Positions 1-34,922 of a stretch of 64,000 nt of DNA are shown here, in pieces. Origin of the DNA: Escherichia coli. GTDB lineage: Bacteria > Pseudomonadota > Gammaproteobacteria > Enterobacterales > Enterobacteriaceae. The notes under the pieces were generated by a model, which saw nothing but the letters and a program-made list of their open reading frames with translations, did not search any database and had not been told where the DNA came from. The DNA is taken from assembly GCF_041886205.1 (NCBI RefSeq), contig NZ_CP169029.1; one strand, written 5' to 3'. The position numbers and the translations under genes are program-made. Numbering within the stretch: position 1 is the first letter of the stretch; every line of letters begins with the position of its first letter.

Positions 1-69
1 CACGGTTCATTTGGTACGAAGATGGGCGACTATATTGTGGCTTATGCGCTGCCGGATGATGTGAAGTAA
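1..69 (+). CDS. 3' end of an ORF entering from upstream (probably PQQ-dependent glucose dehydrogenase gcd, by synteny)
   Basis: Frame open from base 1 to TAA at 67-69 (…GDYIVAYALPDDVK*); position relative to cueO fits gcd; too short to recognise by sequence. Confidence 0.45.
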   Translation, partial: HGSFGTKMGDYIVAYALPDDVK

Positions 70-107
70 GACTTGCTCAGATTGCTGACAACGTGCGCGT
101 TGTTCAT

Positions 108-205
108 GCCGGATGCGGCGTGAACGCCTTATCCAGCCTACAAAATTGTGCAAAATCAATGGATTGCACAGCTAGCGTAGGCCTGATAAGCGTAGCGCAT
201 CAGGC
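108..205. repeat. REP/BIME palindromic unit pair
   Basis: gccggatgcggcgtgaacgccttatccagcctaca followed by inverted gtaggcctgataagcgtagcgcatcaggc, the typical E. coli REP sequences. Confidence 0.7.
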
Positions 206-270
206 AGATTTGCGTTTGTCATCAGTTTAATGCCCGGAGAGATCCGGGCATATTTCCGAATACGGTCTTT

Positions 271-1821
271 TTATACCGTAAACCCTAACATCATCCCCGT
301 ATCTTCATGCTCCAGCAGATGGCAGTGCGCCATATAAGCATGTTCTTTCGGTGCATCGTGATTAAACTTCACCAGCACTTCGCTGACATTACCTTCTACC
401 TTAACGGTATCTTTCCAGCCCGCGCGATGAGCCGCTGGCGGTTTGCCATTTTCTGACAAGATACGGAACTGCGTGCCGTGGATATGGAACGGATGCAGCA
501 TCATGTCGCCCACGCCAGAGATAACCCAACGTTCGTATTGCCCTTTCGCCGCCGCAAACATCGGCTTGTTCATATCAAACGCCTGACCGTTGATTTTGTT
601 GGCATGGTGGAAATCGAACTTCCCGCCGTGGTTCATATGATTCATATTGCCGTGCCCCATATGGCCCATCATCTGGCTGTGATCCATCCCGGCCATCGCC
701 TGATCGCCATATTTCTCCATTAGCATCTGCATCCCCATCATATCGAGCATCGGGTCCATAGAGAGTTGCAGCTTGCGTACCGTCAGCCCTTCCAGCGAAG
801 GTAACGCAGGCAGGCTACTTAATGTGTCTGGCAAAGCACCGGAGGCACTAATAGCAATCGGCTGAATCCGCATTACCGGATGAGGCTTATCAAACGGCGC
901 AATCGCCATCCCCATCTGGCTGACCGGCAGCGTCACCAGGTCAAAGGGTTTGTTATCGTTAACCTCCACCAGCACTTCAAAACGCTCGCCCATCAGCACC
1001 GGCAGTTCGCTCACCTTCACTGGTTCAGGTAGCAGACCACCGTCGCTGGCAATCACATACAGCGGGCGATTGTCGCTGGTGGCGAAATTGAGCGAACGGG
1101 CATTACAGCCATTGAGCAAACGCAGGCGCAGCCAACCACGCGGGGCAGCGTGTTGCGGGTAGATTGCACCGTTGGTCAGCAACGTATCGCCAAACCAGCC
1201 CACGGCGGCGGTCATCACATCCAGTTGATAATCAATCTGCCCGTCGGCGCTAAATTTCTTATCCTGAACGATCACCGGAACATCATCGATACCCCACTGT
1301 TTTGGCAGCATTAATTTCAGGATCTCGTCATCTTCAATCACCACCAGCCCAGCCAGCCCCATCGCCACCTGTCGCCCGGTTTTGCCGTGCTGATGCGGAT
1401 GGAACCAGCAGGTAGCGGCAGGTTGATCAACGTTCAACGTCACCGAGCGCTTGCCACCTGGCGGAATAATTCCCTGCGGGCCGCCGTCGACTTCACCCGG
1501 TACTTCCAGCCCGTGCCAGTGCAACGTTGTCTCTTCCGTCAGTTGGTTGTAGATATCAACCGTTACCGCTTTGCCGCGCTGTAATTTCACCGCCGGCCCC
1601 AGCAGATTGCCGTTATAGCCCCAGGTAGTTGCAGTTTTCCCGCCAAAGGTGGACTGGCCTGCGCCAATAGTTAACTGAATGCGATTACGGGCATCGGTCG
1701 TGAGCAAATCAGGGATCGGTAACGTTGGGCGTTCTGCCGCAAATACTGCGCGGCTCCACAGCGGCAAAGCCGAAGCCACACCCAGCGCGACGGAATATTT
1801 TAAGAAATCACGACGTTGCAT
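271..1821 (-). CDS. cueO: Multicopper oxidase CueO (periplasmic, Tat-exported)
   Basis: 516-aa translation with Tat signal [10 protein letters not shown], copper-site HxH motifs and a Met-rich insert; start set at internal ATG (1819-1821), not the longest ORF. Confidence 0.95.
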
Positions 1822-1986
1822 AGTTATTTCCTTATTCTTAAGCAGGCGAAACAAAATCAAACGTTGAGCATAGTCCTTCCCCTTACGGGAAGGTCAAGCC
1901 GCAGACACAATTTAATCGACAATAATGGTCGTCGCCTCGCTCGCAGTGTGCTAACGTTTATCTTCTTTAAGCCCCTGGTAGAAGCA

Positions 1987-2334
1987 ATGAAGACGTTTTT
2001 CAGAACAGTGTTATTCGGCAGCCTGATGGCCGTCTGCGCAAACAGTTACGCGCTCAGCGAGTCTGAAGCCGAAGATATGGCCGATTTAACGGCAGTTTTT
2101 GTCTTTCTGAAGAACGATTGTGGTTACCAGAACTTACCTAACGGGCAAATTCGTCGCGCACTGGTCTTTTTCGCTCAGCAAAACCAGTGGGACCTCAGTA
2201 ATTACGACACCTTCGACATGAAAGCCCTCGGTGAAGACAGCTACCGCGATCTCAGCGGCATTGGCATTCCCGTCGCTAAAAAATGCAAAGCCCTGGCCCG
2301 CGATTCCTTAAGCCTGCTTGCCTACGTCAAATAA
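1987..2334 (+). CDS. yacC: Small secreted protein YacC (115 aa, signal peptide)
   Basis: Translation MKTFFRTVLFGSLMAVCANSYA… matches YacC; start at internal ATG 1987. Confidence 0.85.
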   Translation: MKTFFRTVLFGSLMAVCANSYALSESEAEDMADLTAVFVFLKNDCGYQNLPNGQIRRALVFFAQQNQWDLSNYDTFDMKALGEDSYRDLSGIGIPVAKKCKALARDSLSLLAYVK

Positions 2335-15887: not shown

Positions 15888-16047
15888 GGGTTATTCCTTA
15901 TCTATCTAATAACGTTGAGTTTTCTGGAACCTGTCCCATTGAACTCTCGCCGGAAAGCTCAATAAGACAGGTTCTACGTTTAGTTGCCGCGCTTTTATAT
16001 GCGCTTGATTTACAACATCTTCTGGATAATTTTTACCAGAAAAATCA

Positions 16048-27261: not shown

Positions 27262-27470
<209 letters not shown>

Positions 27471-27477
<7 letters not shown>

Positions 27478-27874: not shown

Positions 27875-27902
27875 AAAAAAGGCGCAGAATCCTGCGCCTT
27901 TT
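27875..27902 (-). terminator. Hairpin downstream of secA (partial terminator before mutT)
   Basis: Stem aaggcgcag/ctgcgcctt with a 4-nt loop; the minus-strand transcript has a U-run after the stem. Confidence 0.5.
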
Positions 27903-27919
27903 ACTTCAACTGTTAGCTT

Positions 27920-30625
27920 TTATTGCAGGCGACCATGGCACTGCTTGTATTTTTTACCAGAACCGCACGGGCAAGGATCGTTACGTCCTACTTTGCGTTC
28001 ACCGGTTTGCGCCGCCAGTGCAGCTGCGGCTGCAGAGTCGTCATCCTGATGGCTAAGCTGCTGCATTTGCGCTAAACGCTCGGCTTCTATACGACGCTGT
28101 TGTTCCAGCTCCTCAACCTCTTCAGGCATACGTACCTGAACTTTGCTCAGCGTACTGATAACTTCATATTTCAACGACTCCAGCATCGCTGCAAACATGG
28201 AGAACGATTCACGTTTGTATTCCTGCTTCGGATCTTTCTGTGCGTAGCCACGCAGGTGGATACCCTGACGCAGATAGTCCATCGCTGCCAGGTGCTCTTT
28301 CCACAGGGAGTCAAGCGTTTGCAGCATGACGCCTTTCTCGAAGTGACGCATCATCTCAGCACCAACCACTTCTTCTTTACGCTGATACACTTCGATGGAC
28401 TGCGCCAGAATGCGCTCACGCAGCGTCTCTTCATGCAGTTCTGGTTCTTTATCCAGCCACTCAGCAATTGGTAAATCGAGGTCGAAATCGTTCTTCAGAC
28501 GTTCCTGCAGCCCCGGAATATCCCACATTTCTTCCAGCGACTGTGGCGGAATGTAGGCATCAATGGTCGCTTTGAACACATCTTCACGAATGCTGTTAAT
28601 GGTTTCGCTCACATCACTGACATCCAGCAGTTCGTTACGCTGGGAGTAAATGGCGCGACGCTGATCGTTAGCCACGTCATCATATTCCAGCAGTTGCTTA
28701 CGAATGTCGAAGTTACGGCTTTCAACTTTACGCTGGGCGTTGGCAATCGCTTTGGTCACCCACGGGTGTTCAATGGCTTCGCCTGGCTTCATACCCAGTT
28801 TACGCATCATGCCGGATACTCGGTCGGAAGCAAAAATACGCATCAGCGCATCTTCCATCGACAGGTAGAAACGGGAAGAACCAGCATCCCCCTGACGACC
28901 AGAACGACCGCGCAACTGGTTATCGATACGACGGGATTCGTGACGCTCGGTACCGATGATATGCAGGCCACCTGCTGCCAGTACCGCATCGTGACGTACC
29001 TGCCAGTCGGCTTTAATTTTTTCAATTTGCTCTGCGGTCGGATTTTCCAGCGCGGCAACTTCTGCCTGCCAGCTACCACCGAGCACAATATCTGTACCAC
29101 GACCCGCCATGTTGGTCGCGATAGTCACCGCAGCCGGATAACCTGCCTGAGCAACAATCGCCGCTTCGTTGGCGTGGAATTTGGCGTTCAGGACGTTGTG
29201 CTTAATACCGGCTTTGGTCAGTTCGTTTGATACCAGCTCCGATTTTTCGATGGAGATAGTACCCACCAGCACCGGTTGGCCTTTCGCAGTACGTTCTTTG
29301 ATATCTTCAATGATCGCCTGAATTTTTTCCGCTTCAGTCATGTAGACCAGGTCCGGCAGATCTTTACGAATCATTGGACGGTTGGTCGGAACAACGACGG
29401 TATCCAGCTTGTAGATGGAGCTGAATTCGAAAGCTTCGGTATCAGCAGTACCGGTCATCCCCGCCAGTTTTTCATACAGACGGAAGTAGTTCTGGAAGGT
29501 GATCGAAGCCAGCGTTTGGTTTTCGTTCTGGATCTGCACACCTTCTTTCGCTTCCACAGCCTGGTGAAGACCATCGGACCAGCGACGGCCCTGCATGGTA
29601 CGACCGGTGTGTTCGTCAACGATGATAACTTCACCATCTTTAACGATGTAGTCGACGTCACGGGTAAACAGCGCATGAGCGCGCAGCGCCGCCGTTACGT
29701 GGTGCATCAGCATGATGTTGGCCGGAGAGTACAGAGACTCCCCTTCATCCATGATGCCTTCTTTCACCAGCAGTTCTTCAATCAGCACCAGACCACGTTC
29801 GGTCAGGTTCACCTGGCGAGATTTTTCGTCCACCGAGAAGTGGCCTTCGCCCTGGAAGGTTTCGGAGTCTTCTTTTTCCTGACGGATCAGGTGCGGAATA
29901 ATTTTATTCACGCGTTTATACATTTCCGAGCTGTCTTCTGCCGGGCCAGAAATGATCAGCGGTGTACGCGCTTCATCGATCAGGATGGAGTCCACTTCGT
30001 CCACCAGCGCATAGTGCAGTTTACGCTGTACACGTTCTTCAGGACTGAACGCCATGTTGTCGCGCAGGTAGTCAAAGCCGTATTCGTTGTTCGTACCGTA
30101 AGTGATGTCAGCTGCGTAAGCTTCACGCTTCGCTGGTGCTGGCATACCCGGCAGGTTGATACCGACAGTCAGGCCAAGGAATTCAAACAGCGGACGGTTG
30201 TTTTCGGCGTCACGTTGCGCCAGGTAGTCGTTCACGGTAACTACGTGCACGCCTTTACCGGTTAGTGCGTTCAGGTAAGCAGGCAGCGTTGCGGTCAGGG
30301 TTTTACCTTCACCGGTACGCATTTCGGCGATGCAGCGTTCGTTAAGAACCATACCGCCGAGTAACTGAACGTCGAAGTGACGCATACCAAAGACGCGCTT
30401 ACTTGCCTCACGCACCACGGCGAAAGCTTCCGGGATCAGATTTTCCAGCACTTCGCCTTTTTCCAGACGTGCACGAAACTCTGCGGTTTTACCTTTCAGT
30501 TCTTCGTCGGAGAGTTTTTCCATCTCCGGTTCCATGGCATTGATGATGTTGACCACTTTGCGCATCCGGCGCAGGGTGCGATCGTTACGACTACCGAAAA
30601 CTTTAGTTAATAATTTGATTAGCAT
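27920..30625 (-). CDS. secA: Preprotein translocase ATPase SecA
   Basis: 901 aa [23 protein letters not shown]… with DEAD-like motor motifs and C-terminal zinc site [14 protein letters not shown]. Confidence 0.97.
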
Positions 30626-32447: not shown

Positions 32448-33599
32448 TTAATCAGCTTGCTTACGCAGGAATGCTGGGATATCCAGATAATCCGGCTCTT
32501 TCGCAGTTTGCGGCGCATTGTCATTCACGACTTTAGCAACCGGCTTCTGCTCCTGGGTCAGCGGAGCCATCCCGTGCTGCTGGTAGCGATCCATCACTGG
32601 CTGCTGAACCTGCTTATTGGTCACCAGAGTGATTTCAGGACGTTTGTCCATGCCGATACCTGTCGCAACAACGGTTACGCGCAGCTCGTCATTCATATCC
32701 GGGTCAAGAGAAGTACCGATAACCACAGTCGCGTTGTCGGAAGCAAATGCACGGATGGTGTTACCTACCGTTTCGAACTCATCCAGACGCAGGTCGAAGC
32801 CCGCCGTGATGTTAACCAGCACGCCGCGCGCGCCAGACAGGTCGATATCTTCCAGCAGCGGAGAAGAGATAGCCATTTCAGCAGCTTCTTCCGCACGGTC
32901 TTCACCGCTCGCCACGCCAGAACCCATCATTGCGTAGCCCATTTCAGACATTACGGTGCGTACGTCTGCAAAGTCCACGTTCATCAAACCCGGACGAGTA
33001 ATCAGTTCGGCGATACCTTGCACAGCGCCTTTGAGTACATCGTTCGCTGCGCCAAACGCATCCAGCAGGGAGATACCGCGGCCCAGAACTTTCAGCAGTT
33101 TGTCGTTCGGGATAGTGATCAGAGAGTCCACATGCTTGGACAGTTCAGTGATCCCCTGCTCCGCGAATGCCATACGCTTCTTGCCTTCAAAGTTGAAGGG
33201 CTTAGTGACGACAGCAACGGTCAGGATACCCAAATCTTTTGCCACTTCAGCGACGACTGGTGCTGCACCTGTACCGGTACCACCACCCATACCCGCAGCA
33301 ATAAAGACCATGTCTGCACCTTCCAGCGCCGCACGCAGTGCATCGCGATCCTCATCAGCCGCATTGCGGCCAACTTCTGGATTAGCGCCAGCTCCCAGTC
33401 CTTTGGTGATACCGCTACCGATTTGAATCGTCTGTCCAACCGCTGTTTTACGCAGCGCTTGTGCATCGGTATTTACCGCGAAGAATTCAACACCTTCAAT
33501 GCGCTCGCGCACCATGTGTTCAACAGCATTACCGCCGCCGCCGCCGACGCCGATGACTTTAATCACCGCGTCATTGGTAAGTTCCATTGGTTCAAACAT
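32448..33599 (-). CDS. ftsZ: Cell division GTPase FtsZ
   Basis: 383 aa with tubulin signature GGGTGTG and a conserved C-terminal peptide. Confidence 0.98.
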
Positions 33600-33659
33600 A
33601 GTTTCTCTCCGATTTGTGCCTGTCGCCTGAGACCGTAATCATTGTCGGCCTCATAAAAA

Positions 33660-34922
33660 TTAAAACTCTTTTCGCAGCCAACTATTGAGTCGCTTGATCC
33701 ACGAGCCAACTGATGCTGTAACACGTTTTTCTACTTCAGCTTCACCGTTAAGATGTGACTCTTTCCCGTAATGAAGCAATCCCACCGCCGTCGAATAATA
33801 CGGCTCCTGAGCATAATCCGTTAAACCGGTAATGTTCAGTGGCGCGCCGATACGCACCTGCGTATGAAACACGCGCTGAGCACAGGCTGCAAGACCTTCA
33901 ATCTGCGCTGCGCCACCGGTTAATACAATGCCTGCCGCCAGGTGATGTTTAACCCCTTGTTGGCGAAGCTTTTCCTGCAACTGCAATATCTCTTCGTTGA
34001 CCAGGTTGAGCAGCTCGGTATAGCGCGGCTCGATCACCTCTGCCAGGGTCTGACGTTGCAGACTCCGCGGCGGACGACCGCCTACGCTCGGCACTTCCAC
34101 GCTCTCATCTTTTCCAACGATGGAACCCAGCGCACAACCGTGGCGAACTTTAATCGCTTCGGCGTCGCTTGGCGGCGTGCCAAAGGCGTAAGCGATATCA
34201 CTGGTCACGACATTGCCAGCATAAGGAATTACCTTAGTGTGGCGCAATGCCCCACCGGTATAAACGGCGATATCCATTGTACCACCACCGATATCGACGA
34301 CGCAGACACCCAGTTCACGTTCATCTTCCGTCAATACCGAATAACTTGATGCCAGACCGGCAAATATCAGTTGGTCAACTTTCAGCCCACAACGTTCAAC
34401 CGCTTTGACGATGTTTTTCGCCATATCGTTGTGGCATGTGATCAGGTGCACTTTTGCCTGCATCCGCACGCCCGAAAGTCCTACCGGATTCTTGATCCCT
34501 TCCTGATAGTCAATCGCATACTCTTGCGGGATCACATGCAGCACACGATGCTCATCGCGCACACGCACCGATTTCGCGGTATGGACGACGTTTTCCACAT
34601 CTTCTTGCGTTACTTCTTCTTCAGAAATAGGCACCATACCAATTTCATTCTGGCAGCTGATGTGCTTACCAGAAAGCGCCAGATATACCGAAGAGATCTG
34701 ACAATCTGCCATCAATTCTGCCTGGTCAATGGCGCGTTGTACGCACTTGACCACGGATTCGAGGTCGTTCACCCCGCCTTTATCCATACCACGCGACGGG
34801 CAGCTGCCCACGCCAATGATATTGACCATACCGTCGGGCAGAACTTCCCCTACTAAAGCGGCAACCTTCGCGGTACCAATCTCCAGTCCTACTACCAGTT
34901 TTCTGTCCGTCGCCTTGATCAT
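33660..34922 (-). CDS. ftsA: Cell division protein FtsA (actin-like ATPase)
   Basis: 420-aa translation [27 protein letters not shown]…. Confidence 0.97.

Follow-up and report, generated by a model that had tools for sequence, protein, structure and literature searches.

The window analysed here, a stretch of 64,000 nucleotides of Escherichia coli DNA, begins with the 3′ end of the plus-strand gene gcd, which is followed by cueO on the minus strand. The cueO coding sequence occupies positions 271 to 1821 (minus strand), with the ATG at 1821, the stop codon at 271 to 273 and 516 codons in addition to the stop, and its product is a multicopper (cuprous) oxidase of the periplasm. Over the first 2.4 kb, the window is 100% identical in DNA sequence to genomes of the E. 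coli K-12 type, in which the genes concerned are annotated gcd, cueO and yacC. A 321-nt fragment spanning the methionine-rich segment discussed below is 100% identical to K-12 MG1655; it was found in 5,423 of 5,426 complete E. coli genomes, at 97.5 to 100% identity, and is annotated there as cueO.

The deduced protein and PDB entry 5B7E, “Blue copper oxidase CueO”, are 100% identical over 516 residues, and residues 29 to 516 of the former are identical to 1KV7 and to about thirty further CueO entries. It matched the CueO equivalog model NF008205 of NCBIfam over residues 1 to 516 with 982.9 bits (cutoff, 525). Three Pfam cupredoxin domains scored over their cutoffs, Cu-oxidase_3 at residues 55 to 165, Cu-oxidase at 227 to 293 and Cu-oxidase_2 at 399 to 516, and the protein has the three-cupredoxin pattern of three-domain multicopper oxidases. 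Models of related families returned scores far under their thresholds: 297.4 bits with the FtsP/SufI model NF008135 (cutoff, 581), and 119.6 bits with the CopA/PcoA copper-resistance oxidase model TIGR01480, copper_res_A (cutoff, 478.95), to whose subfamily the protein therefore does not belong. Residues 1 to 28 (MQRRDFLK...AVFA; positions 1738 to 1821, minus strand) form a probable Tat signal peptide with the twin arginine R3-R4 in an RR-D-F-L-K motif at residues 3 to 8, and the mature crystallised chains begin at residue 29. The Pfam TAT_signal model scored 21.1 bits, slightly below its cutoff of 22.7, and Tat export of CueO has been reported (PMC11494321).

The HxH motifs of the trinuclear cluster are all present (H101/H103, H141/H143, H446/H448 and H499/H501). 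The type-1 (T1) copper ligands H443, C500, H505 and M510 and the cluster residues H446, H448, H499 and H501 were checked at their positions, between 292 and 495 on the minus strand. We take the T1 and trinuclear-cluster roles of these residues to be those of the general HxH and HCH motifs of multicopper oxidases. The substrate copper site, Cu5, has as ligands M355 (positions 757 to 759, minus strand), D360 on the Met-rich helix (742 to 744, minus strand), and, in domain 3, D439 and M441 of the D439-M440-M441 stretch (499 to 507, minus strand) (PMC11494321); all of these are present here and invariant in our alignment of homologues. T1, trinuclear-cluster and Cu5 ligands are thus all found at the published positions. 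The gene is E. coli cueO, as the first-pass annotation of this DNA had named it, on the strength of the exact PDB match, the equivalog score, the three cupredoxin domains with the near-threshold Tat signal, the DNA identity to K-12 and the placement of the copper ligands; none of the evidence contradicts this identity. The K-12 protein (YacK; PDB 1KV7, 1N68, 3OD3, 3NT0 and 5B7E) does not differ from that of the window at any of the 516 residues, nor does its DNA, and the definition of the Met-rich region derives from this protein.

Upstream of the coding sequence, at 1867 to 1897 on the minus strand, lies the cueO promoter with a putative CueR operator, in which TTGACC and TATGCT are separated by a 19-nt spacer. 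Direct reading and a pattern match both identified within the spacer the inverted repeat CCTTCC-N7-GGAAGG (1875 to 1893), which is the exact CueR core motif. That motif, the 19-bp spacer rule and the membership of cueO in the CueR regulon have been described (PMC8169799). Judged by motif and spacer, the promoter appears to be of the CueR type. A sigma-70 scan of positions 1 to 2050, which accepts spacers of 16 to 18 nt only, returned no promoter in this region; it missed that of cueO because the latter has a 19-nt, MerR-type spacer.

Composition and boundaries of the methionine-rich segment

Codons 355 to 421 of cueO occupy positions 559 to 759 on the minus strand, with residue 355 at 757 to 759 and residue 421 at 559 to 561. 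The first-pass annotation had placed a Met/His-rich segment here, and its coordinates, reading frame and quoted translation all agree with the sequence. Our count bears out the composition as well: these 67 residues comprise 16 Met, 9 Gly and 7 His, and the remaining 449 residues of the protein hold 13 Met. At the background rate of the protein, the probability of finding at least 14 Met in 45 residues is about 2e-11, and a Fisher test of the Met content of residues 355 to 400 against the rest of the protein gave p = 8e-9. Among the remaining open frames of 100 codons or more in the window, none has more than 7 Met in any 45 residues.

The segment had also been described as a dense run of CAT triplets on the plus strand. 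There are indeed 18 CAT in these 201 nt, the maximum for any 201-nt stretch in the 64 kb, where the window-wide mean is 3.7 (sd 2.0), and 16 of the 18 are in frame as cueO Met codons. Tandem Repeats Finder, run on positions 450 to 900, detected no repeat in the E. coli segment, and the CAT density therefore stems purely from the single codon of methionine. A His-rich open frame of 81 codons is present on the plus strand at 478 to 723. Its His content follows from the fact that CAT, the antisense of ATG, encodes His, and we dismissed the frame as an antisense shadow of the cueO ATG run rather than a gene. Two terminator-like matches at 428 to 448 on the plus strand were likewise dismissed; they fall within the coding region of cueO, and such matches are no more numerous there than in shuffled sequences.

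The insert proper comprises residues 355 to 400 (positions 622 to 759, minus strand), with 14 Met, 5 His and 8 Gly in 46 residues. It is located between the end of the Pfam Cu-oxidase match at residue 293 and the start of Cu-oxidase_2 at residue 399, in front of the conserved “IN” strand of domain 3, and insert-free homologues have an 11-residue turn at the same position. The first-pass annotation had extended the insert to about residue 420. Its Met-rich part, residues 355 to 400, stands, and residues 401 to 421 (559 to 621, minus strand) belong instead to the conserved cupredoxin domain 3. They are included in the Cu-oxidase_2 match, which begins at residue 399, and are nearly invariant, F402, D403, F404, H405, A407, N408, I410, N411 and G412, among others, being unchanged throughout the homologue alignment; the flagged range thus overran into domain 3 by 21 residues.

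FtsP (SufI) is an E. coli paralogue of CueO that, to our knowledge, binds no copper. It has the three-cupredoxin fold in common with CueO (PDB 2UXT and 9R91; E = 1e-69 to 1e-72) and is exported by Tat, and the alignment of the two proteins breaks at residue 342, ahead of the insert. With the engineered CueO that lacks the Met-rich region (PDB 2YXV/2YXW; deletions 358-407 and 361-396), which retains the same scaffold, the match breaks at residue 356, at the start of the insert.

Within the insert, a Met-rich helix at residues 357 to 369 (715 to 753, minus strand) is invariant in Escherichia and Citrobacter, and is followed by a flexible loop at residues 370 to 398 (628 to 714, minus strand), which is disordered in most crystal structures; both ranges are taken from PMC6155172. 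The counterpart of this loop in the Hafnia enzyme is probably intrinsically disordered, and the E. coli loop is 22 residues shorter (PMC12041951). The distal part of the insert, residues 390 to 400 (622 to 654, minus strand), is the site of all length differences between Escherichia and Citrobacter.

Variation of the insert within and between species

We compared the window with six diverse E. coli strains (O157:H7, ST131, O91 and three others). Among these seven strains, 8 of the 46 codons of the insert and 78 of the 470 codons elsewhere in the gene are variable, which is the same rate, and the sole residue change in the insert is G399S. The length of the insert is constant in all seven. No length change was detected either in the intact records sampled across the ranking of 5,431 E. 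coli matches, in each of which 321 nt aligned to 321 nt in one piece. The insert is under ordinary purifying selection in E. coli. The only divergent E. coli match, that of strain L37 (82.5% identity), was rejected as a natural insert variant: the gene is annotated as a frameshifted pseudogene, contains an internal stop, and its divergence is patchy and scrambled. It may be an assembly error; real decay and such an error are indistinguishable here, and the strain was left out of the variation analysis.

An exhaustive search of 50%-identity representatives identified 1,082 homologues at E <= 1e-30. The 132 near-full-length sequences among the best 150 of these were aligned, with R349 and N411 (E. 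coli numbering) as anchors on either side of the insert. The shortest spacing between the anchors in these representatives was 11 residues, which corresponds to a plain beta-turn (RxFxL....IN), and the longest was 85 residues; the number of Met between the anchors ranged from 0 to 18, the E. coli protein having 63 residues and 14 Met. Length and composition thus vary between species, as had been proposed. Long inserts are mostly Met-rich and, outside the enterobacteria, typically rich in Met and Gly with little His; a high His count, namely seven, was found in E. coli and in Providencia stuartii P0121. Two Roseibium proteins annotated as CueO (P0122 and P0271) have a 49-residue insert with only 4 to 5 Met and no His, and the length of the insert and its Met-richness are therefore separable.

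A finer picture was obtained with the genus Citrobacter, whose CueO proteins are 84 to 87% identical to that of E. coli. They consist of 539 or 544 residues in C. freundii/portucalensis, 519 or 521 in C. amalonaticus, 516 in C. tructae and 512 in Citrobacter sp. RHB25-C09. The part outside the insert is exactly 470 residues long in every Escherichia and Citrobacter sequence, and the insert measures 42, 46, 49, 51, 69 or 74 residues, with a Met count that climbs with length from 12 to 20. The proximal 35 residues (355 to 389) are nearly invariant and the length change is wholly distal, bringing the Citrobacter insert to between 42 and 74 residues. The distal loop is of low complexity and unalignable between distant taxa; its Met/His/Gly/Asn composition is kept in every enterobacterial variant.

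The DNA of the distal loop of C. freundii is a 15-nt tandem repeat, GGCAATATGAAYCAY, present in 4.0 copies with 88% match, which specifies pentapeptides of the HGNMN type. The alleles of 544 residues differ from the common ones of 539 residues by exactly one 15-nt unit, and replication slippage is the obvious mechanism by which such alleles would arise. A full-text literature search, which amounts to a weak negative, returned no published description of this repeat basis of insert length variation. We may speculate that the distal loop of CueO is an evolutionarily tunable “methionine counter”, in which the gain or loss of HGNMN units would generate, within one species, alleles with different numbers of Met and His and thus with a different capacity to strip Cu(I) from strong chelators, with E. 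coli carrying a degenerate, length-frozen version; we regard this idea as rather unlikely. Natural insert deletions were at first glance suggested by homologues P0008 and P0011, of 470 and 471 residues. Their deletions are located in domain 2, and both sequences originate from short metagenome contigs. A third homologue, P0002, has an internal duplication and a truncated C terminus, and all three are probably artefacts of assembly or gene calling.

The first-pass annotation had further recommended the insert as a useful marker for lineage comparison, which is only weakly true. It does vary between species, but it offers no resolution within E. coli. Equal lengths moreover occur in separate lineages, since E. 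coli and C. tructae both have 46 residues when other Citrobacter have 42, 49, 51, 69 or 74, C. freundii is polymorphic for length, and at greater distance the loop cannot be aligned.

Function of the insert and its biological meaning

The cuprous oxidase activity of CueO and its contribution to copper tolerance have been published for a protein identical to that of the window (PMC11494321, PMC12510620), and the roles that the first-pass annotation had attributed to the segment, covering the substrate site and binding extra copper, match published experiments (PMC11494321, PMC6155172, PMC12041951). In crystal structures, the insert covers the T1 copper site (PMC11494321, PMC6155172). [quoted passage not shown] The domain-deleted enzyme retains 10 to 20% of the activity on Cu(I)-BCA, and it is near wild type with unchelated Cu(I) in electrochemical assays and in copper resistance in vivo (PMC11494321). 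The engineered deletion variants therefore differ from the window protein by the absence of the insert, their higher phenol/ABTS oxidase activity and their 10 to 20% residual Cu(I)-BCA activity (PMC11494321).

Cu5, formed by M355, D360, D439 and M441, is now regarded as the only substrate site at which Cu(I) is oxidised, with a negligible role for Cu6 (M358, M362) and Cu7 (M364, M368, M376); earlier studies had given Cu6 and Cu7 catalytic roles, which conflicts with the newer data (PMC11494321). The authors of that work concluded that the methionine pool transiently takes Cu(I) from strong chelators and passes it to Cu5 (PMC11494321). Under anaerobic copper stress, it is catalysis that matters rather than the copper-binding capacity of the domain (PMC12510620).

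CueO of Hafnia alvei (PDB 8R4F; deletion variant 8R4H; E = 3.5e-218) resembles the E. coli protein in fold, in its T1, trinuclear and Cu5 sites, and in the helix and disordered loop of the insert (PMC12041951). Its insert is 22 residues longer and has 6 more Met, and it oxidises strongly chelated Cu(I) better, with a lead over E. coli CueO that grows with chelation strength (PMC12041951). PcoA/CopA-type oxidases and the hairpin of the Thermus thermophilus multicopper oxidase likewise have clusters of Met thioethers near T1 or the copper path that bind Cu(I) (PMC6155172, PMC11494321), but these elements differ from the CueO insert in position, length and structure. The Thermus enzyme gained no phenol oxidase activity upon deletion of its hairpin (PMC11494321).

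Taken together, these data indicate that the insert very probably acts in CueO as a lid over T1, as a donor of Cu5 ligands and as a recruiter of Cu(I). The identity of the gene, the boundaries, composition and conservation of the insert, its repeat basis and the CueR-type promoter come from the present analysis; the lid, Cu5 and recruitment come from the published experiments. CueO, a Tat-exported periplasmic oxidase, converts toxic Cu(I) to Cu(II) with reduction of oxygen. Residues 355 to 400 constitute an insertion in cupredoxin domain 3, with a helix at about 357 to 369 and then a Met/His/Gly loop at about 370 to 398, that sits like a lid over the T1 site and would keep bulky phenolic substrates away from it. 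The lid would contribute M355 and D360, which together with D439 and M441 of domain 3 would form the labile Cu5 site at which Cu(I) is bound and oxidised, and its many solvent-exposed thioethers would transiently catch Cu(I) from tight chelators and deliver it to Cu5. The proximal half, residues 355 to 389, is conserved in sequence and the distal loop in composition only, the latter being presumably resized between species by short repeat units. How much recruitment matters to the cell is less certain, given the near wild-type in vivo resistance without the domain (PMC11494321) and the anaerobic data (PMC12510620).

We ranked this combination of functions as better supported than the four other models of the insert that follow. 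The sole selected function of the insert could be steric, the exclusion of organic substrates from T1, in which case the methionines would be incidental hydrophobic filler. The roughly tenfold gain in ABTS/phenol oxidase activity upon domain deletion (PMC11494321, PMC6155172) argues for a steric role, as does the existence of long inserts at this site that are not Met-rich, such as those of 49 residues with 4 to 5 Met in Roseibium. However, Met enrichment recurs in most unrelated long inserts at the site, longer inserts contain more Met in enterobacteria, deletion specifically lowers the activity on strongly chelated Cu(I) (PMC11494321), and a Met-richer domain raises activity (PMC12041951), which makes exclusion alone an unlikely account. 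It is clearly less probable still that the distal loop is neutral low-complexity sequence, made and resized by replication slippage with no selected function. The C. freundii 15-nt tandem repeat with its alleles one unit apart, the poor sequence conservation between genera and the disorder of the loop in crystals (PMC12041951, PMC6155172) are all compatible with neutrality. A neutral loop would nevertheless be at odds with the retention of Met, His, Gly and Asn in all enterobacterial variants, with the lack of any length change in intact E. coli records sampled across the 5,431 matches, with a single amino acid polymorphism in seven diverse strains at a normal synonymous rate, and with the measurably better activity on chelated Cu(I) afforded by a larger loop (PMC12041951).

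The authors of PMC11494321 speculated that the domain might be a copper store or a maturation aid, which would help to fill the four catalytic copper sites at low copper supply or would, apart from catalysis, buffer copper in the periplasm. The high affinity of the domain for Cu(I), known from published work, would suit such a task, but we found no direct evidence for a role in maturation and hold this proposal to be quite improbable. Marginally less credible is the notion that T1 receives electrons or copper through Cu6 and Cu7 as obligatory binding or relay sites. Both are occupied in Cu(I)-soaked structures, earlier mutants lost activity or dropped fourfold (PMC11494321), and the five ligand methionines are present here and invariant in Escherichia and Citrobacter; yet in single and double mutants of these sites cuprous oxidase activity persists in vitro, as does copper resistance in vivo (PMC11494321), by which the relay is largely refuted. 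Finally, the CAT-rich run might be read as a non-coding or plus-strand feature, that is, as the 81-codon frame or a DNA repeat. A frame can mechanically be drawn on that strand, but the coincidence of 16 of 18 CAT with Met codons of cueO, the absence of a tandem repeat and the exact match of the minus-strand product to an experimentally solved protein have already refuted this reading, to which we assign next to no probability.

The Met-rich segment of this window is an ordinary and already known feature, the archetype for the literature on the CueO Met-rich domain, and the gain for the window itself is a correct annotation only. A modest novelty lies only in the repeat that underlies the varying length of the insert in Citrobacter. 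The comparative data caution against the use of insert length as a phylogenetic marker. The recruitment of Cu(I) by Met-rich domains is an active topic, and in standard in vivo assays the domain seems dispensable. The change in length confined to the distal loop, the scaling of the Met count with loop length, and the C. freundii alleles that differ by one unit provide natural variants with which the recruitment question may be addressed.

Control region and antisense frame of cueO

Reading of the sequence upstream of cueO, which lies on the minus strand at 271-1821 and encodes a periplasmic multicopper oxidase of 516 residues, together with a pattern match, placed the promoter on the same strand at 1867-1897, as TTGACC and TATGCT separated by a 19-nt spacer. 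Within that spacer, an exact CCTTCC-N7-GGAAGG sequence at 1875-1893 represents the predicted core operator of CueR. A generic sigma-70 scan of window positions 1-2050, which allowed spacers of 16 to 18 nt only, did not pick up this promoter because its spacer is of the 19-nt, MerR type.

On the plus strand, an 81-codon, His-rich ORF at 478-723 runs antisense to the Met-rich segment of CueO (residues 355-400; 622-759). We rejected it as a gene and consider it a shadow ORF of the cueO Met codons: each ATG, read from the opposite strand, becomes CAT, a His codon in the antisense frame, hence its composition.

For the rest of the window, Rfam matches above the gathering score were obtained for tp2, naRNA4 (twice), STnc40, PssrA, the leucine operon leader and SgrS (15890-16003, 27278-27471, 27875-27944, 33591-33680, 55181-55330 and 61310-61536). 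These matches and the ORF layout fit the region of E. coli K-12 in which gcd, cueO and yacC are followed, further along, by the leu operon and sgrS. Neither the Rfam matches nor the ORF layout across the window revealed an unusual feature.

Length variation and aberrant copies of cueO

In Citrobacter freundii, the distal, length-variable loop of the Met-rich segment is encoded by four copies of a 15-nt tandem repeat, GGCAATATGAAYCAY (loci L009:2673-2732 and L010). The CueO alleles of 544 and 539 residues differ by exactly one such unit.

Only one E. coli genome had a strongly divergent copy of the Met-rich segment, at 82.5% identity, that of strain L37 (NZ_CP034589.1, L001:1272-2804). The annotation marks the L37 cueO as a pseudogene, with a frameshift and an internal stop, and identical stretches alternate with patchy, scrambled divergence; this state may reflect real decay or an assembly error. 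Three E. coli-like CueO sequences from short contigs are also anomalous: P0008 and P0011 carry deletions of 36 to 46 residues in domain 2, and P0002 has an internal duplication and a truncated C terminus. The Met-rich insert is unaffected in all three, and their anomalies are probably artefacts of assembly or gene calling.

Mobile elements around cueO

The gcd-cueO intergenic region (68-270) contains REP-type repeated sequence, and positions 1-2400 used as a query returned 9 to 46 matching places per E. coli genome. The window shares with O157:H7 a spacer of approximately 200 nt, and in ST131, O91 and others this spacer measures only 46 nt; therefore, the REP block is present in some lineages and missing from others. 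In several E. coli strains IS621, of the IS110 family, sits between gcd and cueO (e.g., L011:70-1549), and other strains carry IS1A or ISVsa5 inside the same 2.4-kb stretch. The REP-bearing spacer thus looks like an insertion hot spot.

We also found cueO on 19 plasmid records. The copy on Escherichia fergusonii plasmid pRHB28-C21_3 (L002:6299-11916), a 100-kb replicon with phage genes for portal, head, holin and lysis proteins, is 100% identical to that of the window and is flanked by two ISVsa5 transposase genes, one on each side. It looks like a chromosomal copper-tolerance gene captured by a composite transposon.
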